Part shown: piece after piece, positions 37,521 to 55,084 of the stretch
Layout of the letters: every line of letters starts with the position of its first letter
How positions within the stretch are numbered: the first letter of the stretch is position 1
From: Alphaproteobacteria bacterium
Lineage (GTDB): Bacteria > Pseudomonadota > Alphaproteobacteria > SHVV01
Length of the DNA stretch: 64,000 nt
Direction of reading: 5' to 3'
Assembly: GCA_965224275.1 (NCBI GenBank)
Contig: CBDCYR010000002.1
Span: 192,902-256,901 of the forward strand
Notes under the pieces: model-generated
What the model saw: the letters and a program-made list of their open reading frames with translations, nothing else
Told to the model about the DNA's origin: nothing
Database searches by the model: none
Position numbers and translations under genes: made by a program

Positions 37521-38179
37521 ATGAAAGATACGCCGACCAAACTCGAACCCGGTGAACTCGCAATCGATGGTCGCGTGTTCGACCTCTACGACGAGTATTG
37601 CCACGGCGAGATCGACCGCCGCACATTCCTGGGCCGCGCCGGCGCACTCACGATCGGCGGCGCGGCGGCGCTGGCGATGGCCGAGAGCCTGCTGCCGCGT
37701 TACGCCCGGGCGCACACGATCTCGTTTACCGATCGACGCATTCGGGCGCGCTACGTTGATTACGCATCAGACGGCGGTAGCGGCGGTGCGATGCGCGGTT
37801 ATCTCGTTCAACCCGCTGGCGACGGCCCGTTCCCGTCGGTCGTGGTCATTCACGAGAACCGTGGCCTCAATCTCTACATCGAAGACGTCGCGCGCCGCTT
37901 GTCGGTCGACGGCTTTCTGGCGTTGGCGCGGCAACGGTGGTCGCAAAGATCCGCGCGTCGCTACTGGTGCATTACGCCGAGAACGACGATCGCATCAACG
38001 GCATGCGCCCGGCTTTCGAAACCGCGCTCAAAGCCAACAATGCCAGCTACGAGATGCACACCTATCCCAGCACCCGGCACGGGTTTCACAACTACTCGAC
38101 GCCGCGCTACGACCAGGTCGCCGCCGATCTGGCCTGGCAACGTACAATCGCGTTTTTCAAGCAGCATCTCGCCGGTTAA
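37521..38179 (+). pseudogene. Dienelactone-hydrolase-family protein with Tat signal, internal deletion/frameshift
   Basis: The N-part ('RRTFLGRAGALTIGGAAALA...PFPSVVVIHENRGLN...VDGFLALA') and the C-part ('LLVHYAENDDRI...HTYPSTRHGFHN') lie in different frames. They are separated by too little sequence to hold the ~70-aa nucleophile segment. Confidence 0.55.
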
Positions 38180-38221
38180 GACCGCCGATCAAACCCGACG
38201 CGAGCGCAACCCAGACTGGCG

Positions 38222-38866
38222 ATGAGCGTGAGCAAAACCGCCCTATTGATCACTTACCGAACCAAACTGGGGCAACGCGACGCGCTGCATCGCGCCTTCG
38301 ACGCGCACGTCAGAGAACACGTCGCGGCAAACCCCAAAGTCGAACGCTTTGTTAAATGCAACGACGACGCCGACCCCAACACGGTCCATCTTTTTGAACT
38401 CTATAGCGACCGCGCCGCACTCGACGCGGTTGGTGGCGCGACCTGGCTCGCCGATTACAACGCGGCACTGGAGCCCGTTCTCGCTGGCCCGCCTGAGCTC
38501 GCGTTCACGAGTTCGATCTGGTCCAAAGAAACCGATCCTGCCGCGATCGACCAAACGAGCGAGCCGCCGCCGATGGGTCTGTTTGTTAAGTACAGAACAA
38601 CCGATGGAGGACGAGAGGCAATCCATGCGGCATGGGAAGAGCGGGTAAAGTGGTATATTGAGTCTGCGGATGGGATTCGGTTCTTTTATATGTCGATCGG
38701 TGAAGAGTCGGATCTTCTCTGTCTGTTCGTGCTCTTCCAGGATCGCTCGCTGCTCGACGTTTCAAGCGCGACTGACTGGTTCCAGGCCTATCGTGATCTG
38801 ATCGAGCCGAACATCACCCAACGCACGGTCTACCGCAGCACGCCGGTTTGGATCAAAGGCGCCTAG
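38222..38866 (+). CDS. Tandem ABM (antibiotic-biosynthesis-monooxygenase-like) domain protein
   Basis: Two repeats: 'LLITYRTKLGQRDALHRAF' and 'LFVKYRTTDGGREAIHAAW'. Confidence 0.6.
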   Translation: MSVSKTALLITYRTKLGQRDALHRAFDAHVREHVAANPKVERFVKCNDDADPNTVHLFELYSDRAALDAVGGATWLADYNAALEPVLAGPPELAFTSSIWSKETDPAAIDQTSEPPPMGLFVKYRTTDGGREAIHAAWEERVKWYIESADGIRFFYMSIGEESDLLCLFVLFQDRSLLDVSSATDWFQAYRDLIEPNITQRTVYRSTPVWIKGA

Positions 38867-39716
38867 CTCATCACACTGACTGGCACGGACCATCGCGATC
38901 GGCTGACGTCACCGCGCGCCTCGCGATACCCTGACCCGCCGCCGTGCCCACATGAGCGCGACGCTCGCGCCCACCGCCAACGTGCCCGCGAGCAAGTTGA
39001 CCAGGATGTCGAATGGGTCGAAGACTCGGCTGGGCAGAAACGACTGGATGCACTCGTCGAGCACTCCCAGCGCCCCTGTCGCCAGGATGGCGAGCAAGGG
39101 CGGCACCCGGACCGGACGACCGCGCCTAGGCGTACGACTAGGCGATACGACGATTATGACACGCAGACCAAGCCCAGTTCCCGTCGGGATCGACAGACCG
39201 CAAGGTCGTGTGTTTCTCCCGCTCACGTTAAAGAAAACGAAGCCAATCTTTCATAATCGTCGTATCGCGCGATTATTGCACCGATGGCTAACGAAGTTGC
39301 GCTTGGCATGAGCGCGAAGCGATGGCCTAAGGCCGCCTTTCTCCTCAGGGCGAATGGCTGTTTTTGGCTAATCCCGGTCCTTGGGGTCGGCGAAAACCAC
39401 GTCGGTTGTCGGGGGTAAACCGAACCCTTCCCGAAGTCCACGATCAACGACGCTGGCCCCTGCCAGACAGAGGCACGACGCGCACAATCGCCCGGCACGA
39501 AAGAATCGCAAGGTTGCCATCGTCATCGAAGGCGGGCATTTTTGGTGGCGGGGAAGCACGATTACGAGACTTCCGCTGGACTGAGGGGAAGGCCGGCACG
39601 CCCGAAGCCGAGATTGAACGCCAAAACGGTAGCGGCTCGCTCAAGCGCGAGGTAATCGGCGTTCTCGTTCGACCAACGCCATGGAGCCAGGCCGAATCTG
39701 CGCATGACGAACCCGA

Positions 39717-40697
39717 ATGAGCGCTTGCCAATCGCGAAGATGGCCAAGCAAAAATCGAAACGACGCCGTTTCGGCCGACGAGAACGAAATGGCCGCTGAT
39801 CCAGGAAAATCGGCGACTGGTGGCGCCAAGGAGGACGTTGCGGAGAAGGATAGCGACGACTCGAAGAAGAAGAAAAAGAAGAAACCAGGCTTTCTCACAA
39901 GGTTGCTGACCGAACCCGCTCCCACCGCCGCCGATGGTAAAGACAGTGGGGACTCGGACGAGCAATCACCGAGCTCGCCTGGCGCAGATGCTGCCGAGGA
40001 TGACCTCGCCGCGCAGCAAGGCGACGATGCGAAAGACGAGGCGGAAGCAAAACCCAAGAAAAAGAAGCTGGGCTTCCTCGCCAGGCTGCTGACTGAACCG
40101 ATTGCGGCTTCTGATGATGCCAACGACGCGGCTACAAGCGATCAACCCCGTGGTGCGCCCGCCCAGGGCGCCGCACCCGCCGCGACAAATAAAAAGCGCT
40201 CGGATCGTTCGGACGACAAAGAAAAACAGCTGACCACGGAGGCGTTCGAGGCAAAGCTTGAGGAACTGATCAATCAACACGGCAAGGTGCTGGCTGGTAA
40301 TGTCCAATTCGTCGACCTTTCGGATACGAAGAGCAAATTTCCCGACCGCTCCGTAGCGTTGATGGAAACCCTGCACGCCGTGGCAGAGCAGGTCATCCGA
40401 AGCCATCTGACGTACGGGGACATTTACGCCAGGCTCAAAGACTCCCATCTCATTATTTTCAGCGACCTTGACCCGGCCGAGGCGCAGCGGCGATGCGTTC
40501 AGATCACCACTGAAATCTCGGCAACGCTGGTAACACAGGGCGTCGATACGTCAGGCATTGTGGCAAAATCGATCGTGGGTGAAGTCAAAGGGCGGGCGGA
40601 GCTTGAGGAACTCAGCCTCGAGGACGCACCACCCGAACCCACCGGTGAGACCGATGCCGTGGAGCCGAAGCCGACTCAAGCTAACATCCGCACGTGA
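39717..40697 (+). CDS. Acidic low-complexity protein with duplicated Lys-tract/'GFL(T/A)RLLTEP' motif and a C-terminal globular domain
   Basis: 326-aa frame. 'KKKKKKKPGFLTRLLTEPAPTAADGKDSGDSD' and 'KPKKKKLGFLARLLTEPIAASDDANDAATSD' are embedded in a D/E/A-rich N-half. A non-repetitive ~150-aa C-terminal domain follows. An alternative start is at 39789 ('MAADPG'). Confidence 0.55.
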   Translation: MSACQSRRWPSKNRNDAVSADENEMAADPGKSATGGAKEDVAEKDSDDSKKKKKKKPGFLTRLLTEPAPTAADGKDSGDSDEQSPSSPGADAAEDDLAAQQGDDAKDEAEAKPKKKKLGFLARLLTEPIAASDDANDAATSDQPRGAPAQGAAPAATNKKRSDRSDDKEKQLTTEAFEAKLEELINQHGKVLAGNVQFVDLSDTKSKFPDRSVALMETLHAVAEQVIRSHLTYGDIYARLKDSHLIIFSDLDPAEAQRRCVQITTEISATLVTQGVDTSGIVAKSIVGEVKGRAELEELSLEDAPPEPTGETDAVEPKPTQANIRT

Positions 40698-40935
40698 CCC
40701 GGCAGCTGCGGTAGCCCGAGATCCCGCGTTTATCGGCCCGTGCGATCTTGCGATGCGCTAGGCGTCGCTCGCCTGCGCGGGGTCGAGTTCCGTACCGGTC
40801 AGGTTGGCGTCGTCGAGATTGGCTCGTTTCAGCGTGGCGCCGCTCAAAATTGGCGTTGCTTAGGTCGGAGGTGAAGAAGTCGGTCTCGGTGAAATCGGCC
40901 TCGCTCCGGTCGCAGCGGGTTTCCCCTACCCCTTA

Positions 40936-41670
40936 TTGGGTACCCCTAATGCACCGGTGACAGGACCCCAACTTAAGCGGCACACTATCGGCCATCCGAA
41001 CGGGGTTGAAATGAACCAGTTGTTGAGCTCGATGGCGCGCTTGGCAATGATTGCGCTTGTGGGGGCGACATTTGCATTGGCATCCACGCAGGCCAATGCG
41101 CAAGCCTTTGCGTTCGCGTTCGACAATCTCTTGACCGATACCGACTTCTTGGATGGCGACGAAGTAACGTTTCAACCGGTCGACGGGCTCACCATCGGCA
41201 ACGTAACTTTCGGGTTCACCATCGGCGGTTTTTCGAGTAACAGCGCCGACTATAATTCCGGCGGTCCAGGTGTCCAGACGTTTACCGATGACCCGTTGAT
41301 GATCGAGGGCGACGCGCAGGGCATCCTGCAGTTGGACTTTTTTGCTCCGACCAGCCAGCTGGAGTTTGGTTTTGCGTTAAGCATCGTCAATCCAACGCCG
41401 CAGCTTGGCGCGACCGTGACCCTGTTTGACGCCCAGTTAGCGCAAATTGGATCACCGCTCGAGGTTCTGGCGACATCTCTGGTTTTCTTTAATGAGGGGT
41501 TGTTCACCTACCTCGACGCCAACAATCAGGTTGGTCGCGCGATCATCGATTTCAACGAGGACGCGGCTGATAGCTTCAACATTATCCCGGTTCCGGCGGC
41601 CATGCCGCTGCTGCTCTCTGGCCTCGTGGGGCTTGGCCTGATCGGCTGGCGGAAGCGCAAAGCGGCATAG
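40936..41670 (+). CDS. Secreted VPLPA-CTERM sorting-domain protein
   Basis: Signal peptide, probably from M at 41011 ('MNQLLSSMARLAMIALVGATFALASTQANA'). The C-terminus 'IIPVPAAMPLLLSGLVGLGLIGWRKRK' matches the VPLPA-CTERM architecture (TIGR03370-like): motif, TM helix, basic tail. Confidence 0.7.
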   Translation: MGTPNAPVTGPQLKRHTIGHPNGVEMNQLLSSMARLAMIALVGATFALASTQANAQAFAFAFDNLLTDTDFLDGDEVTFQPVDGLTIGNVTFGFTIGGFSSNSADYNSGGPGVQTFTDDPLMIEGDAQGILQLDFFAPTSQLEFGFALSIVNPTPQLGATVTLFDAQLAQIGSPLEVLATSLVFFNEGLFTYLDANNQVGRAIIDFNEDAADSFNIIPVPAAMPLLLSGLVGLGLIGWRKRKAA

Positions 41671-41696
41671 CAACGGATCGCATAGAACGAATGAAG

Positions 41697-41722
41697 AGCG
41701 ACCTTCAGGTCGCTTTTTCTTT
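41697..41722 (+). terminator. Rho-independent terminator after the VPLPA-CTERM gene
   Basis: 'AGCGACC-ttca-GGTCGCT' hairpin followed by TTTTCTTT. Confidence 0.55.
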
Positions 41723-42143
41723 GCCTGCCGAATGTCGCCCTTTGGCTTACGAATACCCCTTTTGGGTTACGCCCAACTAACGTGCAAACCTGGGTGTACT
41801 CCAGACTCTCTGTTAAAAAATGTCGGTTTAGGCGGCTGCCCTAATATAGAGCCGTTTTGTTCGGGCGACTGGTAGGGCAGTTCGTGACCCAAACGCAACA
41901 TGGCTGGATGGACGATGGCACCGCGGTCTCAACCGCACCGATGTCGAGGCCGTTACGCGTCCATGCCCCCGCCAGGAACAGATTCGCGAAGCCGGATTCG
42001 CCAGCCCGAAGACGAAAATGCGTGTTGCCCAGACCGATAATACGTAGCGGTTCGAGGGATCGTCGTCGATGCACCAATAATGTGCAACCAGACGCCGTTG
42101 CCTGGAACGCCGCTTGGGCCCACATATCTTGGTCTCAGGCGAG

Positions 42144-42767
42144 TTAGGAGTCGAAAACGCGACGAACGTGGTGGCTGAGTTCTTCGAGACGATACGGCTT
42201 TGAGATGAAGTTGACGTTTTCAGGATTGATGCCAAGTTTGTCGAACGTGGCATCGCTGTAGCCAGATGTGAACATCACCTTTAGCCCCACATGTTTTGCG
42301 GCAGCGATTTCGGCAAGGTCGGGCCCACTTATCCCGGCGGGCATAACGACATCGGTGAACAGCAGGTCGAAGTCTTCACTCTTCTCCAAGATGGCGACGG
42401 CTTCGGCACCGTCGGCTGCGGCGACGACCGTGTAGCCAAGGCCCGTTAGCAGATCGACCGATAACTCGCGAACGTCTGCGTCATCTTCGACAATGAGAAT
42501 CCGTTCACCTTCTCCCGATGCCTCCGAAAGTTTTTCGGTAGGCTGTTCAGCCGTCACTTCATCGCTAACCACGGGCAGATACACCTCGAACTTGGTTCCC
42601 TGGTCGCGATTGCTTCGGACGTTAAGAAAACCGCTTGATTGCGAAACGAACCCGTAAACCTGGCTGAGACCGAGCCCGGTTCCTTTGCCGACTTCCTTGG
42701 TCGTATAGAACGGATCGAAAATCCGGCTTAGGTCGTTCTCGGAGATCCCGGTTCCGGTATCTTCGAT
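42144..42767 (-). pseudogene. 3' fragment of a hybrid histidine kinase (HATPase_c tail + REC), separated by an IS1595-family insertion
   Basis: Host-derived sequence begins 'SIEDTGTGISENDLSRIFDPFYTTK...GTGLGLSQVYGF' and continues with REC 'ILIVEDDADV...LLFTDVVMPAG'. The upstream part of the listed ORF reads through the IS terminal repeat. Confidence 0.8.
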
Positions 42768-43806
42768 ACTGGGTATCCACTTCGCTCTCGTATCCCCTAC
42801 ATTTGGTTTCCGAGGCTGCGATGACCGCCGACTAGGCCCTTGTAGGGGACCGGCTCGTGCTGCACCGCCTGCTGGAGCAGTCGGAAGAAAAGCAGGCCAC
42901 GAGCCTGCGAACGGCGGCGATTGAATCGGAAAGTGAACTCGTCGAGATAGTAGTCGAGATGGTCGGCATCGATGGCACCATGGTGGATGCCCAGCCACCA
43001 GCGATCAAGCAGAGCGGCCACGCGATGCACTCGTGGCATGACGATGTGGGCCGGGTCGCCACTGGCGGAAATGGATCTCGGCTGGTGGTCATAGCCTTGG
43101 TTCGCCAGACCACTGTAGGCTGACCAGCCATCGGTTCGGACGGTCGCGCCAGGCGCCACGGTTGTTTGGACAAACGGGATCAGGCTCCTCGCAGCCACAT
43201 CCTCGACGCGGCTCATTCGGATCCGGCCAGTGCCCCGCCCTCGGACTTCCGCCGCAATCGCGACGATCGACTTGGTCTTCGTCTGTCGCCCCACGACGCC
43301 GGTTTCCCGGCCGCCCACATAGGTTTCGTCCACCTCGACCGCGCCGCCCAGGAGATCACGCCCCGGCCTCACCATGGCGCGCCGCAACTTGTGCAGCCAA
43401 GCCCAGGCGGTCTGATAACTGCCCAGGCCAAGAATGCGTTGCAGGCCGAGCGCACTGACCCCGTGCTTCTGGTTGGTCACGTACCACATCGCCTGGAACC
43501 AAAGGCGCAATGGCTTTCGAGTGCCCTCGAAGATCGTCCCCGCCGTCACCGATGTTTGACGCTGACACCGGTTGCATCGCAACTGACCCCGCGCCGTCGG
43601 CCAGGCGTCGGTTCCGCAGCAAGACGGGCATCGAAAACCTTCCGGCCAGCGAACACGCCCAAGAAACTCCGCACACGCCGTCTCCGACACGAACCACGCG
43701 TCGAATTCAGTCAGGGTGCGCGGGTAGTCGACCCCGCCTTCGGGATGGGATGCCGGGTTCGCCATCCCAACATATTGACATCACGAGAGCGAAGTGGATA
43801 CCCTAT
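42768..43806 (-). mobile_element. IS1595-family insertion sequence (1039 bp)
   Basis: Perfect 20-bp terminal inverted repeats 'GGGTATCCACTTCGCTCTCG' (42771-42790) and their reverse complement (43784-43803). An 8-bp target duplication 'TCTTCGAT' lies at 42760-42767 and 43807-43814. A single transposase ORF lies inside. Confidence 0.8.
42797..43765 (-). CDS. IS1595-family transposase (N-terminal zinc ribbon + DDE)
   Basis: 322 aa with 'CPSCCGTD...CNRCQRQ' and 'VEVDETYVGG'. Confidence 0.85.
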   Translation of the reverse strand: MANPASHPEGGVDYPRTLTEFDAWFVSETACAEFLGRVRWPEGFRCPSCCGTDAWPTARGQLRCNRCQRQTSVTAGTIFEGTRKPLRLWFQAMWYVTNQKHGVSALGLQRILGLGSYQTAWAWLHKLRRAMVRPGRDLLGGAVEVDETYVGGRETGVVGRQTKTKSIVAIAAEVRGRGTGRIRMSRVEDVAARSLIPFVQTTVAPGATVRTDGWSAYSGLANQGYDHQPRSISASGDPAHIVMPRVHRVAALLDRWWLGIHHGAIDADHLDYYLDEFTFRFNRRRSQARGLLFFRLLQQAVQHEPVPYKGLVGGHRSLGNQM

Positions 43807-44885
43807 TCTTCGATTTCCAACTTCACGAACTCGCCACGGGGTGGTTCGGCACCGAAGACCTTGGTGCTTCCATCTAGTTTGACCAGTCGGGTCGCGATGG
43901 TGAGACGGCCGCCATTCGGCATGGCGTCACGCGCGTTGACTGCGAGGTTGAGCAAGGCCGTCTCCAGGCCGCCAATATCGAGACGAGTTATGCATGGCTC
44001 ATCGGCAAAGCAAGCCTCGAATTCGATGTTCTCGCGCAGAGCTCTTTGCAGAATGTCCTGGGTCCGGGAGATCACCGTGTAGAGATTGACCACCTCGGAC
44101 TCTAGCGGTTTGCGCCGTGAAAATGCGAGAAGGCCGTTGGCCAATTCGGATCCACGCAACGTGGCTTTGACCGCCGTCTGCAATCTCTTGGCGACTTTGT
44201 CGCTCGCATCCTCGGCCAACAGTTCGAGATTGCCGAGGACGACGCCCAAAATATTGTTGATGTCGTGGGCAATGCCGCCAGTGAGCTTACCAAGGGCCTC
44301 CATCTTCTGGGCCTGGAGGAGATTCTCCTCCAACTCGGTTTGCACGGTGATGTCCTGAACGATCCCCTCGAGCCGGAGTGGTTGGTTGGACTCGTCACGG
44401 ATGATCCTCGCCTGCGAGTGAAGCACGCGCACCTGGCCGTCCTCAGCCTTGATGCGGAAGATCATATCGGCGGCGGGCTTCCCGGTTGCTAGTGCGTCAT
44501 CGATCGGGCGCGTCGCGGCTTGTCGTTCCTTCTCGTCAATCCGCCCCAGCAATACGTCGAGGGGGACCGAATCGGTTACCTCCGCAGATCCGAACAACAG
44601 AGAGGTTTGATTGAAGCAGCGAATGTCGTTCGAATCCGCGTCACGTTCCCATATGCCGAGCTTGGCAAGGTTTTGCGCCTCCGCGAGGCGAGCTTCGCTT
44701 GAGGCAAGTTCGTTGGTGCGCTCGCGCACCCGATCTTCGAGCGCATTACGCGACTCCTCGAGTGCTGCCTGCGTTTCCCGTCTTATCTCATTCTCGTGTT
44801 TCAGTTGGTCGTTGAGACGGATCAACGCCTCGCTGCGCGCTTGCAATTCTCCTGCTACGCGAAACGTTCGGCCGACAAAGAGATA
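43807..44885 (-). pseudogene. Central fragment of the same hybrid histidine kinase (TM remnant, coiled coil, PAS, HisKA, start of HATPase_c)
   Basis: '[31 protein letters not shown]' H-box and 'NLAVNARDAMPNGGRLTIA' N-box. The fragment ends 'VKLEIE' at the IS junction. Joining it to the 42767 fragment gives '...VKLEIEDTGTGIS...', a canonical HATPase_c. The listed ORF's first residues 'VNLIIA' are encoded by the terminal repeat of the second IS. Confidence 0.8.
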
Positions 44886-44946
44886 CGCGATTATTAAGTT
44901 GACATAAGAGGCGACACTCCCCATATGTTGGAAATAGGAGATCGCC

Positions 44947-45801
44947 ATGACCACGTTCTATCAATTCCAAAAGCAGTTTCCCGATGACGAAGCGTGCCTG
45001 CATCACTTGCTGGTGACGCGCTACGGTGGGACCGAGCTGGATTGCCCGAAGTGTGGCGCGTTCGGCAAGTTCTATCGCATGACGAAAGAGCGCGGCTACG
45101 TTTGCCAGCATTGCGGGCATCACCTGCACCCGACCGCCGGCACATTCATGCATCGGACGCGCCTGCCACTTCACAAATGGTTCTACGCGATGTTTCTGTT
45201 TTCGACTTCTCGTCATGGCGTGCCCGCGAAGGAACTGGAGCGGCATCTGGACATTTCCTATCCGACGGCTTGGCGCATGGCGCATGAGATTCGTAAGCAC
45301 ATGGCCGATACGGACGGGGAATGGCCACTGGACGGCGATATTGAAGCCGACGAAACCTATGTCGGCGGGCGCACAACTGGCGGGAAGCGCGGGCGCGGTG
45401 CTCCGAACAAGACCGTCGTATTCGGGATGCTGGAGCGTGGCGGCGACGTGATGGCAAACGTTATCCCGAATGTCCGTAAGCGCACCTTGCTTCCGATCGT
45501 TGCCGAGAATGTCGAGCAGGGCAGTACAATCCACACCGACGAACTTAGGTCCTACCGTGGCTTGGACCGGGCTGGCTTCAAGCATCGGACCGTGAACCAC
45601 AGCGCGGGTGAATATGTGAACCGGGGAAGCCACGTCAACTCGATTGAGGGCTTTTGGGCTCGTCTGAAGCTGTCGATCCGTGGGACGCACGTTCACGTTT
45701 CGGCGAAACACCTTCAGAAGTACGTGAAGGAGTTTGAGTATCGCTACAACCGCCGGAAGCGGCCCGAGACGATGTTCGGCGATCTGGTGGCCCGCTTCTG
45801 A
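44947..45801 (+). CDS. IS1595-family transposase (second, distinct copy)
   Basis: 284 aa with 'CPKCGAFGKF...CQHCGHH' zinc ribbon and 'IEADETYVGG'. Confidence 0.85.
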   Translation: MTTFYQFQKQFPDDEACLHHLLVTRYGGTELDCPKCGAFGKFYRMTKERGYVCQHCGHHLHPTAGTFMHRTRLPLHKWFYAMFLFSTSRHGVPAKELERHLDISYPTAWRMAHEIRKHMADTDGEWPLDGDIEADETYVGGRTTGGKRGRGAPNKTVVFGMLERGGDVMANVIPNVRKRTLLPIVAENVEQGSTIHTDELRSYRGLDRAGFKHRTVNHSAGEYVNRGSHVNSIEGFWARLKLSIRGTHVHVSAKHLQKYVKEFEYRYNRRKRPETMFGDLVARF

Positions 45802-45857
45802 GAGCACGGCGAAGAAGCGCGTCAAAGCGACGCCAAGCGATCACAGGCGGGTAGGTG

Positions 45858-46592
45858 TCATCCTTCATCCGGGTATTCCTTCTCCAACCTATAGAGCGCC
45901 CGTATCACCTCATCTGGGTCTTCGAGTTTCTCGGCCTCTCCGTAGAAATCCCACCACCAATCTTCGTCTTGATCACCGTTGAGTAGGCGATCCTTTTTCA
46001 GGGAGTAGGCAGCAAAGACCTCGCTTTCCGCTGTCTTGTGTGACGCGCTCCTAAAATCCCCATAAAGGTCGTCGACATCTATCTCCGTTGATGCCCTCAT
46101 GATGAGGCGGACTACGCGCCGCCCATTGCCAGGGTTAAGTTTTACGGCTTCTATATCATCGGGGACGCTTGCGGTTGGCTGTATCGAAGGCGGCGGTGTC
46201 GATGTTGTGCCGAAGTTGGGGCGTGCCCACATAAAGCCCCATTCCTCGTTCGACATTACCGCCCTTGCTCTTTTGATATCTCCTTGTTCCGCAGCGGAAA
46301 CAATAGGCGCAAGAAAAGCCCGCCATACATTCGGCCCCATCTTCTTCTCTGGATGAGGGATGTCAAGACGCCCAAGAATAGAGGATGCTCCTTCAATGGC
46401 TATCAAATGAATGTGCCTGTCGTATTTGGCGTCTGTGTAGTCAAAGTGTTGCCGTAGCGCCCGAGCATCGGCCCACAGCCCCACGAAGCTGAAAGGGCGG
46501 TACTTCCGCACACACTTCGGCATCATGCGCACCACGAAGGAGACCAATGGTGCAACCACGCCCGAGAGGCTGATCGGCACTTCAACAACCAT
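45858..46592 (-). CDS. Passenger ORF of the transporter-IS, unknown function
   Basis: 244 aa, with a possible later start at 'MMPKC'. Local GC is ~50-52% versus ~62% outside. It lies wholly within the inverted repeats. No recognisable catalytic or binding motif. C-terminal Trp cluster 'DQDEDWWWDFYGEAEKLEDPDE'. Confidence 0.6.
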   Translation of the reverse strand: MVVEVPISLSGVVAPLVSFVVRMMPKCVRKYRPFSFVGLWADARALRQHFDYTDAKYDRHIHLIAIEGASSILGRLDIPHPEKKMGPNVWRAFLAPIVSAAEQGDIKRARAVMSNEEWGFMWARPNFGTTSTPPPSIQPTASVPDDIEAVKLNPGNGRRVVRLIMRASTEIDVDDLYGDFRSASHKTAESEVFAAYSLKKDRLLNGDQDEDWWWDFYGEAEKLEDPDEVIRALYRLEKEYPDEG

Positions 46593-46639
46593 GCCAGCAG
46601 CGTATTGGTCGCATGGCTTATGTCAACTTGATAATCGCG

Positions 46640-47505
46640 AAGAGATATGAAAGGCCCGCGACCACCAGTAAAAGCAGAACAATCAATGGCGCGGTCGAAC
46701 GCAGAAAGTCCTGACCGGGAAGCATCGGCCGCCAAGTCAGTGTCGTGAGCTTGGTTCCACTGATGCCGTCGAGGCGGAGTGACGCGGTGGCGTCGGTTTG
46801 AGGGCTGTGGAAGCGAAGCCCGTTAAGCCCGTAGTTTGCCGCGAGCTTGGCGAGGAAGTCCGCGTCAACGCGTTTGAGCATGATCACAACAGCACGGTTG
46901 TCGATAGTTTGCTCAGCCTCGTCGTATGAAATGACACTCGCCGAGGCCAGGTGAACCGTTCCATCGAGCAGGAGAAACCCGGTCTTGGGCGTCGGTTGTC
47001 CCTTACCGTCGGACAGCCGTGCTTGCGACAGAAGCGCCTCCAAGCCGCGGCCAAATTTTCTCAGGTCAAAATCTAGCGCGTCTGTGCCATCGACCGACGC
47101 ATAGATAAGTTCGTTGTTGCCGGAAAGGACAACGCTCGTCGCAATGCCGAAATTGTCCGATAGATACGCGCCGAAATTGTGGGACGCCCACGATAGGTCG
47201 GGCTCGATGATGAGGTTCTGGATCGATTCGTCCCACCAGGTGTAGTCCAGGGTCAGCAGGCCCTGGTCGACTTCCATCTTCCGCAAGATCGATGTTGCGA
47301 GATTAACCGACGACGAAATCGCAATCTCATCTTGCTTCTTGGCAGCGACGAATAAGGTGAAGCCAATGGTCACAACCGTTATCAAGACCAGAAGGCCGAC
47401 CGGAATCAGCAGATTTCTTCGCGATTTCTCGACAAGATCTTTTGGTGAGACCAAGCCGCGGAGCGCGGTTAGAAATCCGTCGTTCACTGCTTCGCTGGCT
47501 GCCAT
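46640..47505 (-). pseudogene. N-terminal sensor fragment of the same hybrid kinase (TM - ~250-aa periplasmic domain, possibly CHASE4-like - TM)
   Basis: 'LLIPVGLLVLITVVTIGFTLFV' TM1 is followed by a periplasmic domain, then a second TM 'APLIVLLLLVVAGLSYLF'. This TM is cut by the transporter-IS. The tail 'AIIKLT*' is encoded by the IS terminal repeat. Joining it to the 44877 fragment restores '...GLSYLF|VGRTFRVAGELQ...'. Confidence 0.7.
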
Positions 47506-47884
47506 TTTATCCTACCTCTGGGCGAACGAATTCACATGCTAGTGGCGACTTTCTCTCGCACTCAGACCAAACTCGCAGTGACCGCAGTCACTGCCGCGCA
47601 TATTGGCCCGCATACATTGCCATCGGCGGACGCAGCCCAGCAATCAGGGTTAACGGCGGAATAGAACAGTGAATCCCCGACGCCATTGCTGCCTGTGATT
47701 CGGGTACACCCTTGTATCCTGGCCAGCAGGAAGGAATTCCGCCAAGTTTATACTCCTGCCGTATTCGGTATGAGGCCTGAATTATTTTTGGAACGTCCTT
47801 ATTTGATGCTGTGGACGGCTCTCCATCGTGGATGCAGCGTAGTGCTGCAACGAATGAAGGAGGAGATCTATGGAGCGGATCTAG

Positions 47885-48728
47885 ATGGTTGGGCTGGATA
47901 TCGCCAAGTCGGTGTTTCAAGTCCACGGCATTGGCGTTGAGGGCGAAGTTGTTGTTCGGCGGCGCCTGAGGCGTTCGCAGGTACTCCGTTTCTTCGAGAA
48001 GTTGGAACCGTGTCGCATCGGAATTGAAGCGTGCGCGACTGCTCACCACTGGGCGCGGGAGCTCGGTGCGATCGGGCACGACGTGAGACTGATACCGCCG
48101 AGCTATGTAAAACCCTACGTCAAGCGTCAGAAGAACGATGCGGCGGATGCGGAAGCGATCTGCGAGGCGGTAGGTCGGCCGAGCATGCGTTTTGTTCCAG
48201 TAAAGACAGTGGAGCAACAGAGCGCCATGGGTGCTGCATCGAACGCGCGTGCTGCTGATGCGCCAACGTCTCCGCTTATCGAATGCGATCCGAGGGCACT
48301 TGGCAGAGTACGGCGTCATCGCGCCGAAAGGGCGGAACGGCTTCCAGAAGCTGATTGAGTTGATCGCCGACGAGACCGATGAACGCGTGCCGCAGGTCGC
48401 TCGTATATGCCTTCGGATGCTGGTTGCGCAGTTCCAGGTCGTCAACACGCAGGCGTTGGAGACGGAACGCCGGATCAAGGCGGATGCGCGATCTACCGAG
48501 TGTGGTCGCCGACTGATGGAGGTTCCGGGTGTGGGTCCCATTCTTGCGAGCGCGCTCGTTGCGACCGTACCGGACCCTCATGTTTTTCGATCTGGAAGGA
48601 ACCTGTCGGCTTGGATCGGGCTGGTGCCGAGGCAGAACTCGAGCGCGCGCCGCACAGCCCGGCGCTCGTCCTCGCTCAGCCCGTGCAGAATCGGCAGCTC
48701 GAAAATCGCATCGGCTTGTGCTGATTGA
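47885..48728 (+). pseudogene. IS110-family transposase, frameshifted and 3'-degraded
   Basis: The N-terminal DEDD-type domain ('VGLDIAKSVFQVHG...RIGIEACATAHHWAREL...VKRQKNDAADAEAI') is separate from the C-terminal domain ('LHRTRVLLMRQRLRLSNAIRGHLAEYG...PGVGPILASALVA...WIGLVPRQ'). A frame switch near 48225 splits them. The conserved C-terminal end is missing. Confidence 0.7.
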
Positions 48729-48853
48729 CGGACGGACATCGGCGTGAATCTGTGACCACAGAGAACAAACTGCCGATCCTGAAGCAAACCCGCGTCTGGT
48801 GAAAGGCCTCCAGAGAGGAGGTCTGTGTTTGGCGGTCCGGGAAACCCGTTGAT

Positions 48854-49729
48854 CTATGCCGACGGCGGTAGCGCCAACCATTTCAGCGCCGTCACCGTCC
48901 AGGGGTCATCGGGATCGGCTTGCGCTTCATTGGCAGCGAAGTGATCGAGCCCGGGCCAGACGTATTGTTCAACCACGCCGGACTCCTGCTTCAGCGCCGC
49001 CACCAGCTTGCCCGACGACTCCTGCGCCAGCGCCAGGTCCTCGCCGCCCCATGCCACCAGGAACGGCGTCGTGTTGTCGGCGGTGAACAGAATTGGGCTG
49101 CAATCGGCAGCCTCGCCGTCGCTGCCAAAGCGGCCTTCATAGGATCGTTCGAGGACACTGCCGGGCGCGGCGTTTTCGCGCCGTACGTCGTAGGTGCCGC
49201 CGTTGGGGAAACACCCTTTGACCACGTCGGCCGGCATGCCGCGCAGGGTTGATAGATCGCGACGCAGGGCCAACATCGCGCAGAGGTTGGCGCCGGCTGA
49301 ATGGCCCGCGACGAAGATCCGGTTGGGGCTGCCGCCATAGTCGGCAACCCGGTCGTAGACCAGTTTCAGGGCGTCGAAGCAATCGTCGACCACCCGCGGC
49401 TGGGTCACGTTCGGCACCAGACGGTAGGAGAACGACACGAAGATGGCGGGAAGATCGAGAAACGGCGGTGCGATGAACCCCATCCATTCCTTGAAACCGT
49501 TGCGGAAAGCGCCACCGTGGATGTAGCACAGCACCGGCAGATCGCCGGCGCCGGTATCGTGCGGCAGGTAGAAGTCGACCTTTTGCCAATAGTCTTCGCC
49601 ATAGGGCACGTCCATCACTGTGGGATAACGCGCCGCAACCGCTTTCGAACCGGCCAGGATGCGGGTGGAGTAATCTTCGGCACCGGGCAGGAACATCGGC
49701 GGCATCTCAGGCATATCGTCGAACGACAT
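48854..49729 (-). CDS. Alpha/beta hydrolase fold-3 esterase/lipase (arylesterase/formamidase-like)
   Basis: 291 aa with 'HGGAF' oxyanion and 'GHSAGA' nucleophile motifs. Confidence 0.85.
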   Translation of the reverse strand: MSFDDMPEMPPMFLPGAEDYSTRILAGSKAVAARYPTVMDVPYGEDYWQKVDFYLPHDTGAGDLPVLCYIHGGAFRNGFKEWMGFIAPPFLDLPAIFVSFSYRLVPNVTQPRVVDDCFDALKLVYDRVADYGGSPNRIFVAGHSAGANLCAMLALRRDLSTLRGMPADVVKGCFPNGGTYDVRRENAAPGSVLERSYEGRFGSDGEAADCSPILFTADNTTPFLVAWGGEDLALAQESSGKLVAALKQESGVVEQYVWPGLDHFAANEAQADPDDPWTVTALKWLALPPSA

Positions 49730-49732
49730 CGC

Positions 49733-50614
49733 TTAAGCGCGTGCCGCGGTCTGAACCAGGTGCACCGAGCGTTGCGGGAACGGAATGCTGATCCCGTCCT
49801 GGTCGAAGCGTTCCTTGATCGCCTTGATCAGCGCGCACCGGGTCGACCAATAGTCGGCTCTGTTCGACCACGCGTGGATGATCAGGTTGACCGAGCTATC
49901 GGCCAGTTCGCCGACGACGATCGTCGGTTGCGGGTCATGCAACGCGTTGGGTTCAGCCTCGATCACCGCGCCCGCCGCAGCAATGGCACTGTCGATATCG
50001 TCCTCGTAAGCAATGCCGACAACCAGTTCGATCCGCCGCGTCGGGTGGACGCTGTAGTTCTTGACCGCGGCGCCCCATAGCTGGCCGTTGGGCGCGGTGA
50101 TCTGGACGTTGTCGGGGGTCGTCAATTCGGTGATGAACAGATTGATCGCACTGACCGTTCCCGCGAGCCCGGCAGCCTCGACATAATCGCCGATCTTGAA
50201 GGGCCGGAAGATAAGCAGCATGACGCCGGCGGCGACATTGCTCAGCGTTCCCTGCAGGGCCAGGCCGATCGCTAGACCAGCCGCACCAAGCACCGCCAGC
50301 AAACTAGCGGTTTCCACGCCGAACTGGTCGAGCACGGCGACGATGGTGACCGCAATGACGACGTAGCGCGCCAAACTGCCAAAGAAGCTCGTCAAGGTCG
50401 GATCGAAGCGCGGCACCCGTCCGAGTGCGCGATGCACCAACGCCTTGACCCGACCGGCAATGATCCAGCCGATGATTAGGGTAACCAGCGCACCCACCAC
50501 ATCGAGCCCATAGGTGGTGAGGATCGTTACCACTTGCCCCCACAGCTCGACGCCGCGACTGACCGAAATATCCATGTTCTCCTCCCAGGCGTAACCGTAC
50601 GAGTGCCGATGCAC
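49733..50614 (-). CDS. MscS-family mechanosensitive channel
   Basis: 293 aa: three TM helices, then the conserved beta-domain 'FRPFKIGDYVEAAGLAGTVSAINLFITELTTPDNVQITAPNGQL'. Confidence 0.85.
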   Translation of the reverse strand: MHRHSYGYAWEENMDISVSRGVELWGQVVTILTTYGLDVVGALVTLIIGWIIAGRVKALVHRALGRVPRFDPTLTSFFGSLARYVVIAVTIVAVLDQFGVETASLLAVLGAAGLAIGLALQGTLSNVAAGVMLLIFRPFKIGDYVEAAGLAGTVSAINLFITELTTPDNVQITAPNGQLWGAAVKNYSVHPTRRIELVVGIAYEDDIDSAIAAAGAVIEAEPNALHDPQPTIVVGELADSSVNLIIHAWSNRADYWSTRCALIKAIKERFDQDGISIPFPQRSVHLVQTAARA

Positions 50615-50759
50615 CCGATTATGGCTGCGAAATTGAACATAGGTGTGGGGTGGGGTCTACTCGTTTCGACCCTGATCGGCGCGATTTGTGTGAACCCGCG
50701 AGCGAACAAAGAAAAAGCGGCCCGAAGACCGCTTTTAACGACTACAAACTCTTGAATTG

Positions 50760-51484
50760 TTAGACGACTTTACGCCTCCGCCTGGCGATAAATCCGAGGC
50801 CCGCGAGGCCGCTCGCCAGCAGGAGTGCGGCCGGCGGTAGCGGTACGACAACATCCGGTGGCCAGGAATCGAGCGTGCAACTGTCGCTGCCACAGTCCGC
50901 GACATGGAGCGCGACCCGCGAATTTTGTCTGCTAAGCAGGGCGGCAACCAGCGCGCCCTCGGTGGTCCCTGATACGGTACTGAATACCACGGTCCAGGAT
51001 TCGCCCGTGCCCATTCCGTTGTTGTTCACATTCTTGCGGTCGTAGGCAAACAGATTGCCAGCCCAACCTGGTCCGGGCGGGCTTACACCGGGAGGACTTC
51101 CGGGACTTGGGGTGGTGTCTGGCACGAGATTGACGCCGCCGGTACCGTTGGTCGTGCTGATCTGGCTGTTGAGGAAAACATTCAGGCCGCTCTCAAAATA
51201 GATTTCCGCGACTTCGGGTCCTGACGTGGGATCGCTGGGGTCGGCGGCCGGTGCGAACGAGCTATTGGTGAATACAAATGTCGCGTTGCCCCCGGTACCC
51301 GCACGGTCACGTCGAGCAAGAGATTAAGACCCGGGAAAATATCGCCTTGAGGCGCACCGTCATCGGGCGTGTAGAGAGGGTTATCGGCAGCCACGACCTG
51401 AAGAAGTATCGGTGCTGCCTTCGCGGTCGACGCTGGTAGGGCAATGCAACAAGCCAAAACCGCGAGACCGACGAATTTAGCCAT
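50760..51484 (-). pseudogene. Second VPLPA-CTERM secreted protein, frameshifted at a G5 run
   Basis: The signal peptide 'MAKFVGLAVLACCIALPASTAKA' (ORF 51182..51532) and the C-terminal 'VVPLPPAALLLASGLAGLGFIARRRRK' (ORF 50760..51125) are in different frames. The switch maps to 'ccccc' at 51292-51296. Confidence 0.6.
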
Positions 51485-51829
51485 CTCTCTTGGTAGGGCA
51501 CTCAATAGACGTAGCCTAGCTTCAGCGACCATCTTTCATCTCCGCTCCGAGACAACCCAAGTTTCTTATTCCCTGCACAGCGACACAAAGCGCTGTCGCC
51601 ATTGCGTGCAATCTCTTCTTACCCGCTCTCCTTCGACATTCGTCAAAACATGCCTCGTTACAATCAACGGTTGATTGTCTGCTGATTTATTCTATCAATC
51701 TCTTGATATTCCACGATAATATTAGGGTCAATCGATGTCTGTGCCGACGGTGCAAAGGGGGTAAAAATTCGATCCGGGTCGAATCACCGAGCCCTTCGAA
51801 TCGGACAAACGTGTAAAGGGGCGTTATGT

Positions 51830-53176
51830 GTCGATAACAAACTGAGTTGACCGCTTTATGTACCATATGAATTGACCGCTTCTGTTGTGGTGGTTTGGCT
51901 CGGTCGCGTCGAAACGGGTCACGCGGCCTGGAGCCTGTCGTCGTCGATGGTTTCGCCGTCGGCGCGGTAGCGCGCCAGACACCTGGGTCCGTGGAAGACG
52001 GCCAGGTGGCCGTCGGGATATTCGTGCACCCGGACCTGCGCCTTGACGTAGTGGTGGCGGTGGCGATCGGCCGGGATCTGCAGCGTGCGGTTCTTGTAGC
52101 GCACGGTGTTGTCGCCCGCGACGACGCGGTCCTCCTGGGCGCAGAGGATGTCCTCGAGCGTGCCGGCAAAAGCCACGAAGGCCGAGCCGGTGTCCGCGGC
52201 CGGGCGGGCGAAGCGGGCGTTGTGCGCCGGCCAGAAGAGCTCCTCGAGAAAGCGATTGGCCTCGGCCATGGTGGCGATCCCGGCGAGGCGCAGCTCCTGG
52301 GGCAGGCGCTTCTGCAAGGTCCCGAACATGCGCTCCGAGCGGCCCCGGGCCTGCGGCGAATAGGCCGCGATCAACTCGATGCCGAGCTGCGCCAAGGCCC
52401 GGCCGACCTGGGTCGGGTTGTCCTTGTCCACACCGCCGCCTGCCTCGGGCGTGTGCCAGTAGTGCGAGGCCCGATCGGCGTAGAGCGAGCAGAACAGCCC
52501 GTTTTCGGCGATCACCTCGCCGAGCCCGCGGAACGTGCTCATCGTGCCCTCCTCGGCAACGAAGAAGCCCGAATAGACCTCCGATGTCGCATCGTCCATG
52601 GTCACGATCAGATCCCACCACTGGCCCGCAACCCACTCGTGGCTCGAGCCGTCCTGGTGCAGCATCATCCCCACCACCGGTCGGCGCGGCCGCTTCCGGC
52701 GGTGCGCCCCGCGCCTGGGCGCCGGCTTGATCTTGCCGTGCGCCTGCAAGCTCAGGCGAAGCCAGTTGTAGCTCAGCCCGAAGCCATGCTCGCAGACCAG
52801 CTTCTCGTGGAAGTGCTTGGCCGTGAAGTCCGGGTAGCGCGTCTCGAACAGCTCCAGCACCCGCATCACCTCGTCCACCGGCGCGCGGCGCGCCGAGACC
52901 CGCCCAAGGCGACGGTCGTACAAACCCTCGGCACCCTCGGCCTCATAGCGCTCCCGCCAGCGCCGGAACGTCCGCTCCGACATGCCCAGGATCTCCGAGG
53001 CCTCGGCCTGGCTCAAATCACCCCGATAACAACGTCCGTAGACATCCTCGAACTTCATCAATCTCAGTCCCTGCAACTGCTCCGTCCGGCGCATCCGATT
53101 CCTCCAGATTTGGAGGAAATCTAAAACCGGACAGATCATCTGTTACATAGACCGGTCATATCGTGTGTTAGCGACA
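51830..53176 (-). mobile_element. ISNCY (IS1202-group-like) insertion sequence with long 17-bp target duplication
   Basis: Imperfect ~40-bp terminal inverted repeats ('TGTCGATAACAAACTGAGTTGACCGCTTTATGTACC' versus the reverse complement of 53140-53176). A direct repeat 'GTAAAGGGGCGTTATGT' lies at 51813-51829 and 53177-53193. IS1202-group elements are known for unusually long target duplications. Confidence 0.65.
51919..53139 (-). CDS. ISNCY/IS1202-like transposase (HTH + rve integrase-core)
   Basis: 406-aa frame with an N-terminal HTH ('SQAEASEILGMSERTFRRWRERYEAEG') and DDE integrase-core-like middle. The real start is probably downstream of the listed Met. Confidence 0.75.
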   Translation of the reverse strand: MICPVLDFLQIWRNRMRRTEQLQGLRLMKFEDVYGRCYRGDLSQAEASEILGMSERTFRRWRERYEAEGAEGLYDRRLGRVSARRAPVDEVMRVLELFETRYPDFTAKHFHEKLVCEHGFGLSYNWLRLSLQAHGKIKPAPRRGAHRRKRPRRPVVGMMLHQDGSSHEWVAGQWWDLIVTMDDATSEVYSGFFVAEEGTMSTFRGLGEVIAENGLFCSLYADRASHYWHTPEAGGGVDKDNPTQVGRALAQLGIELIAAYSPQARGRSERMFGTLQKRLPQELRLAGIATMAEANRFLEELFWPAHNARFARPAADTGSAFVAFAGTLEDILCAQEDRVVAGDNTVRYKNRTLQIPADRHRHHYVKAQVRVHEYPDGHLAVFHGPRCLARYRADGETIDDDRLQAA

Positions 53177-53193
53177 GTAAAGGGGCGTTATGT

Positions 53194-54782
53194 CGACCAA
53201 AATCGAAATAGTCTGTATGATACCTTGAATCCAATATTCCGCGTTCCTTACCCGGGATCATGTTTCTGCCGCGCAATCATTCTTACATCGGATCGTGTCC
53301 CGCGGAGTGGTGTAAGAGCGTTGCGCTCTACGCTGCTCCCGGCGGGTAGGGCCGGGACGTTCAGGCTGCCACGGTGGGCAGCGTGATGGGGACATCATCG
53401 CTCAGCGGAGCGATGGATTCCAGCGTCATGTATCTCCTTGAGACGGCCCACTCGTCGTTCTGCTCGAGAAGGATGGCGCCGACGAGCCGTGTGATGGCGG
53501 CTTCGTTGGGAAAGATACCGACGACGTTGGTGCGACGCTTGACCTCGGCATGGAGCCGTTCGATCGGGTTTGTGGAGTGCAATTTCTGGCGGTGCTCCCT
53601 GGGGAAGCTCATGTAGGCGAGGACGTCGTGCTCGGCTTCGTCCATGAGAACTGCCAGCTTGGGCACCTTGAGCCTGAGCTGGTCGGCGACCTGGCGCCAC
53701 TGGACCTTCGCGCTGTCGGCGTCCTCCTGGGCGAAGGCGGTGGCGACGAAGGCGGAGACGACGCGCCGGCCCTGGCGGCCGGCATGGGCCAGCAGGTTGC
53801 GGGCGAAGTGCACGCGGCAGCGCTGCCATGTGGCGCCGAGGATCCGGGTCGCGGCGGCCTTCAGGCCCTTGTGGTCGTCGGAGATCACCAGCTTCACGCC
53901 GCGCAGCCCGCGCCGGGCCAGCGAGCGCAGGAACTCGGTCCAGAAGGCCTCGGCCTCAGACGCGCCGATCGCCATGCCCAGGACCTCGCGGCGGCCCTGG
54001 TCGTTGACGGCCACAGCCACGGTCACCGCGACCGAGACGATGCGCCCGGCCTCGCGCACCTTTACATAGGTTGCGTCGAGCCACAGATAGGGCCAGTCGC
54101 CCTCCAGCGATCGATCGAGGAAGCCGTTGACCTTATCGTCGATCTCGCCGCACAGCCTGGAGACCTGGCTCTTGGAGACGCCCGACATGCCCATGGCCTG
54201 CACCAGGTCGTCGACCGAGCGGGTCGACACGCCCTGGATGTAGGCCTCCTGGATCACCGCAGCCAGCGCCTTCTCGGCCATCCGCCGCGGCTCCAGGAAG
54301 CCCGGGAAGTAGCTCCCCTTCCTCAGCTTCGGGATCTTCAGCTCGACCGTGCCGGCCCGCGTCTCCCAGGACCGGTCGCGGTAGCCGTTGCGGTGGGTGA
54401 TACGATCCGCCGAGCGCTCGCCGTGAGCGGCGCCGGTCAGGCCCTCGACCTCCAGTGCCATCAGCCGCTCGGCCGTGAAGCCGATCATCTCGCGAAGCAG
54501 ATCGGCATCGGAGCTCTTCTCCAAAAGCGCGCGCAGGGTCATCATGTCCTGGGTCATCGTGGTTCTCCTTCGGGTCAGGTTGGTTTGCACTAGCCCAACC
54601 CTAAACCGGAACCGCGATGGCCTCCGCTGTGGATAGCCGGCTTGCCTACGCCAGACTCTCGGCGGTCGCTACGGCAAGCCGCCTACCCACAGCTAACAGA
54701 GGCTCCAACAACTCCTACACCACGTCCTGGGACACGACCTTACATCGTTGATACCTCTCCCACGTCGAGAGGTTGTGGCCGC
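53194..54782 (-). mobile_element. IS256-family element (boundaries approximate)
   Basis: It contains an intact IS256-family transposase. The exact inverted repeats and target duplication could not be resolved by eye. Confidence 0.5.
53361..54590 (-). CDS. IS256-family (Mutator-like) transposase
   Basis: 409 aa with the characteristic '[13 protein letters not shown]' DDE region and a C-terminal '[41 protein letters not shown]'. Confidence 0.9.
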
Positions 54783-54878
54783 GTATCGGTACAATTCCGG
54801 TCCCGGCGGCGTTGCCGCTACTGCTCACTTGTCTGATCGGCCTGGGGCTGATCGGTCGCGGTCGGAAATCCGCCTAAC
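54783..54878 (+). pseudogene. Orphan 3' remnant of a VPLPA-CTERM gene
   Basis: It translates to 'IGTIPVPAALPLLLTCLIGLGLIGRGRKSA*'. This is almost identical to the tail of the 40936..41670 protein ('IIPVPAAMPLLLSGLVGLGLIGWRKRKAA'). No upstream body is present; IS256 abuts it. Confidence 0.55.
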
Positions 54879-55084
54879 TGTCGCAGAGCTAAGGGCGGCT
54901 TTGGCTGCCCTTTTTGACTGACACCCGGCGATGATCCGAGTAACGCACCATTTTGGCACCGCCAAACTCTGCTCGCTTGCACACCACTAACCCGTTCGCT
55001 ACAAAATTGGGACGGTCCGGCCACGCCACGCCGGTCGAGGCTGTTTCCCTCACGAGCGGAGAGTAGTTTGAGCACCAATCCAAA

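Follow-up and report, generated by a model that had tools for sequence, protein, structure and literature searches.

The stretch of DNA examined here, hereafter the window, comprises 64,000 nucleotides of an alphaproteobacterial genome of GTDB lineage SHVV01 (GCA_965224275.1, contig CBDCYR010000002.1, positions 192,902 to 256,901 of the forward strand), and the locus under study, at window positions 42144-47505, holds the remains of a hybrid sensor kinase gene and two insertion sequence (IS) elements, named IS-A and IS-B. Six open reading frames (ORFs) were recognized in the region: three minus-strand kinase fragments, two IS1595-type transposase genes, and a sixth ORF of 244 aa located beside one of the transposase genes. 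An earlier note, made from the letters of the window, had proposed that a single kinase gene was split into three by two independent IS1595-family insertions. Both transposases passed the Pfam and NCBIfam IS1595 models, and when each IS was deleted in silico together with one copy of its target-site duplication (TSD), the three fragments were joined into one ORF of 850 aa on the minus strand, running from 47505 to 42144.

The smaller element, IS-A (42768..43806, 1039 bp), carries a minus-strand transposase gene (42797..43765) whose 322-aa product consists of a Zn ribbon and a DDE_Tnp_IS1595 domain. Its terminal inverted repeats, ACTGGGTATCCACTTCGCTCTCGT and ATAGGGTATCCACTTCGCTCTCGT (42768-42791 and 43783-43806), match at 22 of 24 positions, with a perfect core of 21 nt detected in an inverted-repeat search (42771-42791 versus 43783-43803), and the element is flanked by two copies of TCTTCGAT, at 42760..42767 and 43807..43814. 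The larger one, IS-B (44886..46639, 1754 bp), has 23-nt inverted repeats (CGCGATTATTAAGTTGACATAAG at 44886-44908, and its counterpart at 46617-46639) that agree at 22 of 23 nt, with one mismatch, and is flanked by AAGAGATA at 44878..44885 and 46640..46647. It contains two genes: a plus-strand transposase gene (44947..45801; 284 aa, Zn ribbon and DDE_Tnp_IS1595), and the 244-aa ORF (45858..46592, minus strand), hereafter the passenger, which is convergent with the transposase gene and co-oriented with the kinase. The TSDs were established by reading the junctions and with a script; the two element sizes and the 8-bp length of the duplications were as the earlier note had given them, and the repeats lie exactly at the inverted-repeat boundaries. 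The DDE domains of IS-A and IS-B scored 113 and 160 bits, respectively, with Pfam (PF12762; cut-off 27), and 193.5 and 234 bits with NCBIfam (transpos_IS1595, NF033547; cut-off 75), while the zinc ribbons (PF12760; cut-off 25.4) scored 39.5 and 36.9 bits. The inverted-repeat sequences of each element were found only at their own two sites in the window, with 0 occurrences expected by chance. The elements are independent of each other: identity between their transposases is only 33%, their inverted repeats show no relationship, and their TSDs are separate. On the same three grounds, the idea that IS-A and IS-B together make up a composite transposon was considered and rejected.

The restored protein has the domain order previously proposed, namely a transmembrane (TM) segment, a periplasmic domain, a second TM segment, a coiled coil, PAS, HisKA, HATPase_c and REC, and the sensor, formerly described as CHASE-like, could be refined to CHASE4 (PF05228, residues 82-233; Pfam 64.7 bits, cut-off 26.2). 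PAS_3 (residues 404-462), HisKA (484-544), HATPase_c (590-709) and Response_reg (733-844) were also above the Pfam gathering thresholds, and all five domains are near full profile length. Hydropathy placed the two TM segments at about residues 29-57 and 265-296, flanking CHASE4. The motifs expected of a hybrid kinase are complete: His493 in the H-box, the N box at 599-604, the G1 box DTGTG at 646-650, the G2 box GLGLS at 674-678, and D782 as the phospho-acceptor of the REC domain.

Both junctions read as had been claimed. That of IS-B (GLSYLF|VGRTF, residues 289/290) lies at the cytoplasmic end of the second TM segment, and that of IS-A (KLEIE|DTGTG, residues 645/646) is located in HATPase_c, immediately before the G1 ATP-binding box. 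Fragment 1 (46640..47505, minus strand) thus retains residues 1-289, with the first TM segment, CHASE4 and most of the second TM segment; fragment 2 (43807..44885, minus strand) comprises residues 287-646, with the end of the second TM segment, the coiled coil, PAS_3, HisKA including His493 and the N-terminal half of HATPase_c; and fragment 3 (42144..42767, minus strand) corresponds to residues 644-850, with the G1 box DTGTG, the remainder of HATPase_c and REC. The chimeric ends described in the earlier note were present in the called ORFs, since the tail AIIKLT* of the ORF at 46618-47505 (fragment 1) is encoded by IS-B, the ORF at 43803-44954 (fragment 2) starts inside IS-B (VNLIIA) and takes its stop codon from IS-A, and that at 42144-42998 (fragment 3) starts inside IS-A (RAKWIP).

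Among 5.8 billion proteins, a single close relative of the restored kinase was found (P0001, 842 aa), which has the same domain set and aligned by BLASTP at 67% identity over 812 residues, free of gaps and across both junctions; the spliced gene is therefore colinear with a homologue, which was the check suggested for it. The remaining matches covered only the cytoplasmic half, at no more than 47% identity. A scan of genome contigs with the restored kinase was dominated by conserved kinase-core peptides, the best of them 47% identical, and yielded no close orthologue. P0001 itself stops early inside REC (...GLKVPCLSG*), about 38 residues short (contig L001, 10401-10640), which does not affect the test of colinearity; unrelated sequence follows its premature end and DDE_3 transposases lie nearby, and this gene copy may also be damaged. 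In its series of TM, CHASE4, TM, PAS, HisKA, HATPase_c and REC the restored protein resembles the CHASE4 hybrid sensor histidine kinases, from which the present copy differs in being a pseudogene with P0001 (67%) as its single close relative.

A look-up by exact match of the N-terminal fragment with the IS-encoded tail identified three sister assemblies (L007, L008 and L009), which by BLAST are 99.94-99.96% identical to the window over positions 37571-56868, about 19 kb. IS-B was present at the identical site in the four assemblies of the lineage (the window and its three sisters), whereas IS-A was present in none of the three sisters. L007 and L008 have the precise empty site of IS-A, where the flanks meet with an overlap of 8 bp and a single ATCGAAGA is found (...GAAATCGAAGATACC..., with one copy of the TSD); the comparison of strains that had been suggested for the 1039-bp element thus revealed its exact pre-insertion site, and in both assemblies fragments 2 and 3 are predicted by the gene caller as one ORF of 577 aa. 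In L009 the kinase sequence ends at window position 43887 (residue 619), and is directly followed by the repeated-motif end of an IS21 element that codes for IstA and IstB. The comparison of these alleles indicates that IS-B came first and is shared, and that IS-A and IS21 were later, independent hits. A search of the JGI metagenomes for an empty IS-B site, using a codon-degenerate pattern of the junction, gave 0 matches. Upstream of the kinase start, at a distance of about 380 bp, all the sister contigs share with the window a frameshifted IS110-like remnant (47885-48728), whose transposase is read in two overlapping frames, DEDD_Tnp_IS110 (157 aa) and Transposase_20 (165 aa), and which may have displaced or altered the native promoter of the kinase.

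These alleles also bear on the suspicion that the split gene is an artefact of misassembled IS copies, or that three genuine genes are naturally separated by ISs. IS repeats do confuse assemblers, and L009 ends inside IS sequence; however, the TSDs are perfect, four independent assemblies have IS-B at the identical site, the junctions fall within a TM helix and within HATPase_c and not between domains, and fragments 2 and 3 form an uninterrupted ORF in L007 and L008, so that both versions of this explanation are effectively refuted. The structural reading, one gene destroyed stepwise by independent transpositions, is secure.

The sequence of events is as follows. The ancestral gene encoded an 850-aa membrane-bound hybrid sensor kinase, with the periplasmic CHASE4 domain between two TM segments and the coiled coil, PAS, HisKA, HATPase_c and REC on the cytoplasmic side. 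In a first step, the 1754-bp IS-B entered the cytoplasmic end of the second TM segment, duplicating AAGAGATA, and separated the sensor from a cytoplasmic PAS-kinase-REC frame of 577 aa. In a second step, restricted to the lineage of the window, the 1039-bp IS-A landed just before the G1 ATP-binding box, duplicating TCTTCGAT; its counterpart in the sister lineage L009 is the IS21 element, 26 codons upstream of the IS-A site.

Transposition in this lineage is very frequent: between the window and its sister contigs about five IS presence/absence differences were counted over some 54 kb, at a nucleotide divergence of about 0.05%. Three of them are specific to the window (IS-A, a 1330-bp element, and an IS5-like element that interrupts a second hybrid kinase gene), and the others are an IS630-like element, found only in a 10-Mb contig, and the IS21 of L009; two of these roughly five polymorphic events touch other kinase genes. 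Given this IS activity, we infer that the second hits were neutral insertions, tolerated in a gene inactivated beforehand, as this account is the simplest; they were probably not adaptive. Taken as a whole, a dead sensor-kinase gene whose order of decay can be read from related strains, with second hits that represent neutral accumulation of ISs, is the best explanation of the locus, and one that we hold with considerable confidence.

Several observations weigh against it. No allele free of IS-B was found, and the argument for its priority is that all four assemblies have it; in L009 the contig ends in IS sequence, which leaves the IS21 element unassembled at its right-hand junction; and the IS-A and IS21 hits are less than 80 bp apart, within one domain of a remnant of 1.7 kb. 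If insertion is naively modelled as uniform, a rough estimate of the joint probability of two such second hits is about 1%, and they would be unremarkable only if most of the genome were intolerant of insertions.

Because the uniform model makes the pair of second hits unlikely, a selected second-site knock-out was retained as a minority explanation. According to it, the sensor-less, soluble PAS-HisKA-HATPase-REC frame of 577 aa left by IS-B would be harmful, and lineages that destroyed its ATP-binding domain would be favoured. Of the two independent second insertions, one indeed hit HATPase_c at residue 619 and the other at residue 645; an in-frame ATG for the 577-aa frame is available at 44924, inside the end of IS-B, the product is predicted by the gene caller in L007 and L008, and read-through from a native or passenger promoter is geometrically possible, the passenger and the kinase being on the same strand. 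On the other hand, a Shine-Dalgarno-like sequence is not evident before the ATG at 44924, the promoter scan described below found no outward promoter, and the frame remains intact in L007 and L008, among them the 10-Mb contig at 21x coverage, which indicates that it is not strongly counter-selected. The IS activity of the lineage also suffices for chance hits. We regard selection for the knock-out as improbable, and neutral accumulation of ISs in an already inactivated gene is preferred.

The possibility that the insertions rewired the gene was weighed against the promoter content of the region. The earlier note had suggested that a REC-containing fragment could be expressed from IS-internal promoters. 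In such a case, promoters inside the ISs or at their ends would drive stand-alone signalling products, such as a REC fragment or an orphan CHASE4 membrane protein; chimeric ORFs do exist at all the junctions, and the transposase gene of IS-A is co-oriented with the downstream fragment. A consensus scan of 5.9 kb called one promoter site, fewer than the 2.4 expected from shuffled controls, and none that faced outward at an IS end. Perfect TTGACA hexamers are present in both inverted repeats of IS-B (44899-44904 and 46622-46627), which might be taken in favour of rewiring, but they point inward; they could serve as -35 boxes of the two convergent genes, transposase and passenger, although a good -10 box is not evident beside them and neither was called in the consensus scan. 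In addition, the ORF of fragment 3 depends on a GTG for its start, 230 nt within IS-A, and its frame there overlaps the transposase; no ATG occurs between the IS-A junction and REC, and half of a HATPase_c domain is unable to fold as a kinase. A terminator-like hairpin (42908-42892, minus strand) precedes the exit from IS-A, although such sites are no commoner than chance. The idea that fragments are expressed from IS promoters finds no support in the scan; functional rewiring is very unlikely, and the reading of a dead gene stands.

With respect to its family, IS-A resembles elements of the ISSod11 subgroup, such as ISCsp2, in having one ORF with an N-terminal Zn ribbon and DDE_Tnp_IS1595, a length of about 1.04 kb, terminal inverted repeats and an 8-bp TSD. 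Its end, ACTGGGTATC, was compared with the ISSod11 end consensus (nnnGcnTATC), and IS-A is a putative member of that subgroup. Within the plasmid collection its transposase was 56% identical to ISCsp2-family proteins, including copies from Sphingobium herbicidovorans, and 61% identical to a copy from Methylocella; with 56-61% identity to anything in that collection, IS-A is a distinct element that has no name as yet. Identical IS1595 elements of the ISSod11 subgroup have been described in Sphingobium herbicidovorans MH (PMC5737581).

The element is highly amplified, as an identical transposase was found on about 260 contigs. Ten copies sampled elsewhere (L101-L110) were 99.5-99.9% identical, all nine whose length was measured were 1039 bp long, and an 8-bp TSD was present in eight of the ten. 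The targets are AT-rich 8-mers, in a genome of about 57% GC, and loosely resemble TTCNNGAA, as do TTCTTGAA, TTCCTCAA, TTCCGTAT and the ATCGAAGA of the window; many copies were nested among other ISs.

The earlier designation of the 1754-bp element as a transporter IS was borne out by diverged copies in which the passenger is conserved. A 1745-bp copy with the TSD AACCACTA was found in contig L002 (4954-6698), and one of about 1710 bp in the contigs L004 and L005; both keep the 23-nt inverted repeats of IS-B, the 284-aa transposase, a homologous convergent passenger and the 56-nt spacing. In the window, L002 and L004/L005 alike, the passenger is thus enclosed by the inverted repeats, which is what characterizes a transporter IS; the DNA of these elements is only about 81% identical. 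The copy in L004 (4885-6593) and L005 (4885-6597) lacks a TSD, its right flank differs between these otherwise syntenic contigs and its transposase is truncated in L005, a state consistent with an IS-mediated deletion or rearrangement.

Among plasmids, a DNA search with IS-B gave weak matches at the level of the transposase only. The nearest plasmid relatives of the transposase, from Sulfitobacter (52%) and Geminicoccaceae (48%), each have a convergent hypothetical gene beside them, but these passengers are unrelated to that of IS-B. The ends of the element (CGCGATTAT...) and its size of 1.75 kb presumably place it in the 'ISNwi1+' group. In associating an IS1595 transposase with a non-transposase gene within one pair of inverted repeats, together with an 8-bp TSD, IS-B resembles the known transporter ISs of the family, from which it differs in its passenger, a member of a rare family that carries no annotation and shows no relationship to the passengers found in the nearest plasmid relatives. 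According to the part of PMC3129680 that cites Siguier, Gagnevin & Chandler (2009), passenger-carrying 'transporter ISs' (tIS) were first defined in the IS1595 family.

Fourteen word-indexed homologues of the passenger were found. Between IS-B-type elements the transposases are 87-88% identical, compared with 66% and 48% for the passengers, and the ratio of non-synonymous to synonymous substitution rates (dN/dS) of the passenger was 0.18-0.24, that of the transposase 0.07-0.18. The passenger is therefore a genuine gene, maintained by purifying selection, and its protein changes three to four times as fast as the transposase. Between IS-B and the copy in L002, synonymous divergence was 0.40 in the transposase gene and 0.95 in the passenger gene, which suggests that recombination, or exchange of cargo between related elements, has given the two halves separate histories.

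No match to the passenger was obtained with Pfam, NCBIfam or PADLOC, and no TIR or other effector domain was detected in it. Its AlphaFold model is all-helical, with two domains and a pLDDT of 74.6 (above 90 in the C-terminal domain), and had no Foldseek match in the PDB or BFVD at E<=0.001. A profile search of 1.84 billion representatives recovered 111 proteins, most of which share with the passenger only its C-terminal ~100 aa (window 45858-46160, EAVRLNPGNGRRVVRLIMRAST...) and have varied N-termini; the domain was noted in P0126, P0127 and P0134, and in the contigs L090 and L091. Ten members of this C-domain family had no significant Pfam match (one was sub-threshold), and 0 relatives of the passenger family were found in the JGI metagenomes. 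A few C-domain proteins (P0127, P0134) have a weak TIR-like N-terminus (a faint PF10137 match; PDC-S35, 1.6e-5), and the TIR-like C-domain proteins sit outside IS1595 elements, beside integrase, resolvase or nuclease genes; P0127 starts 5 nt after a NucS_C-like gene. These relatives are a lead and not evidence of function. It is doubtful that the passenger would be more than inert cargo, either as a module benefiting the element or the host (in defence, anti-defence or addiction) or as an accessory factor of transposition; an accessory or regulatory role in the IS itself would be just as conceivable.

The host of the window is probably alphaproteobacterial, with an IS-dense genome of roughly 10 Mb; one sister contig measures 10.0 Mb, and for a housekeeping-type enzyme of the window the nearest named relative, 78% identical, comes from a MAG labelled Alphaproteobacteria. 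The window as a whole is rich in mobile elements, with at least seven IS elements or remnants in 64 kb. Apart from IS-A, IS-B and the IS110-like remnant, these include an IS5-like element (transposase at 14545-15420), the 1330-bp element (about 51847-53176), an IS256-family element (53361-54590) and an IS5/DUF772-type element (59247-60602). The IS5-like element measures 928 bp (14530-15457), and its site is empty in L099 and L100, where an intact PAS/HisKA_2 hybrid kinase of 1234 aa is called, so this second kinase gene is split in the strain of the window only; a different sequence, of 792 bp, occupies the site in L098. In the 10-Mb sister contig (L095, 14047-15211, corresponding to window 27784-27786) a 1165-bp IS630-like (DDE_3) element lies between two kinase genes, the downstream one being called 28 aa shorter there; the window, L096 and L097 all lack the element. 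The 1330-bp IS, in the region 51830-53176, is absent from L007, L008 and L009, is directly beside the IS256-family element and is flanked by an unusually long direct repeat of 17 bp, GTAAAGGGGCGTTATGT, which is single-copy in L007; its candidate transposase (406 aa, 51919-53139, minus strand) matches HTH and IS481-leucine-zipper models only. Signalling genes are unusually dense at 7618-29301, where at least five large PAS-containing (hybrid) histidine kinases are accompanied by several stand-alone receiver proteins, a LuxR-type response regulator and a REC-adenylate/guanylate cyclase.

For annotation purposes, the three kinase ORFs, chimeric ends included, should be entered as one pseudogene and two IS elements, and not as three signalling proteins. 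The biology is ordinary, a gene having been turned into a pseudogene by ISs that are new members of the IS1595 family, and what is added is a well-resolved insertion history; the passenger family of the IS1595-type element, lacking any annotation or structural match, is the only part with potential beyond the ordinary. IS-driven pseudogenisation is a feature of the IS expansions of Shigella, Bordetella pertussis and Yersinia pestis, with which the present genome shares high numbers of near-identical IS copies, genes interrupted with intact TSDs, strain-variable insertion sites, and nested and clustered ISs. In contrast to those host-restricted pathogens, the host here is an environmental bacterium, uncultured and very large in its genome, and the evidence comes from metagenome assemblies only. 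The locus offers a clean and dated case of stepwise gene decay, in which a shared insertion was followed by lineage-specific second hits at about 0.05% divergence, and reveals that IS transposition is currently very active in a large-genome environmental bacterium.

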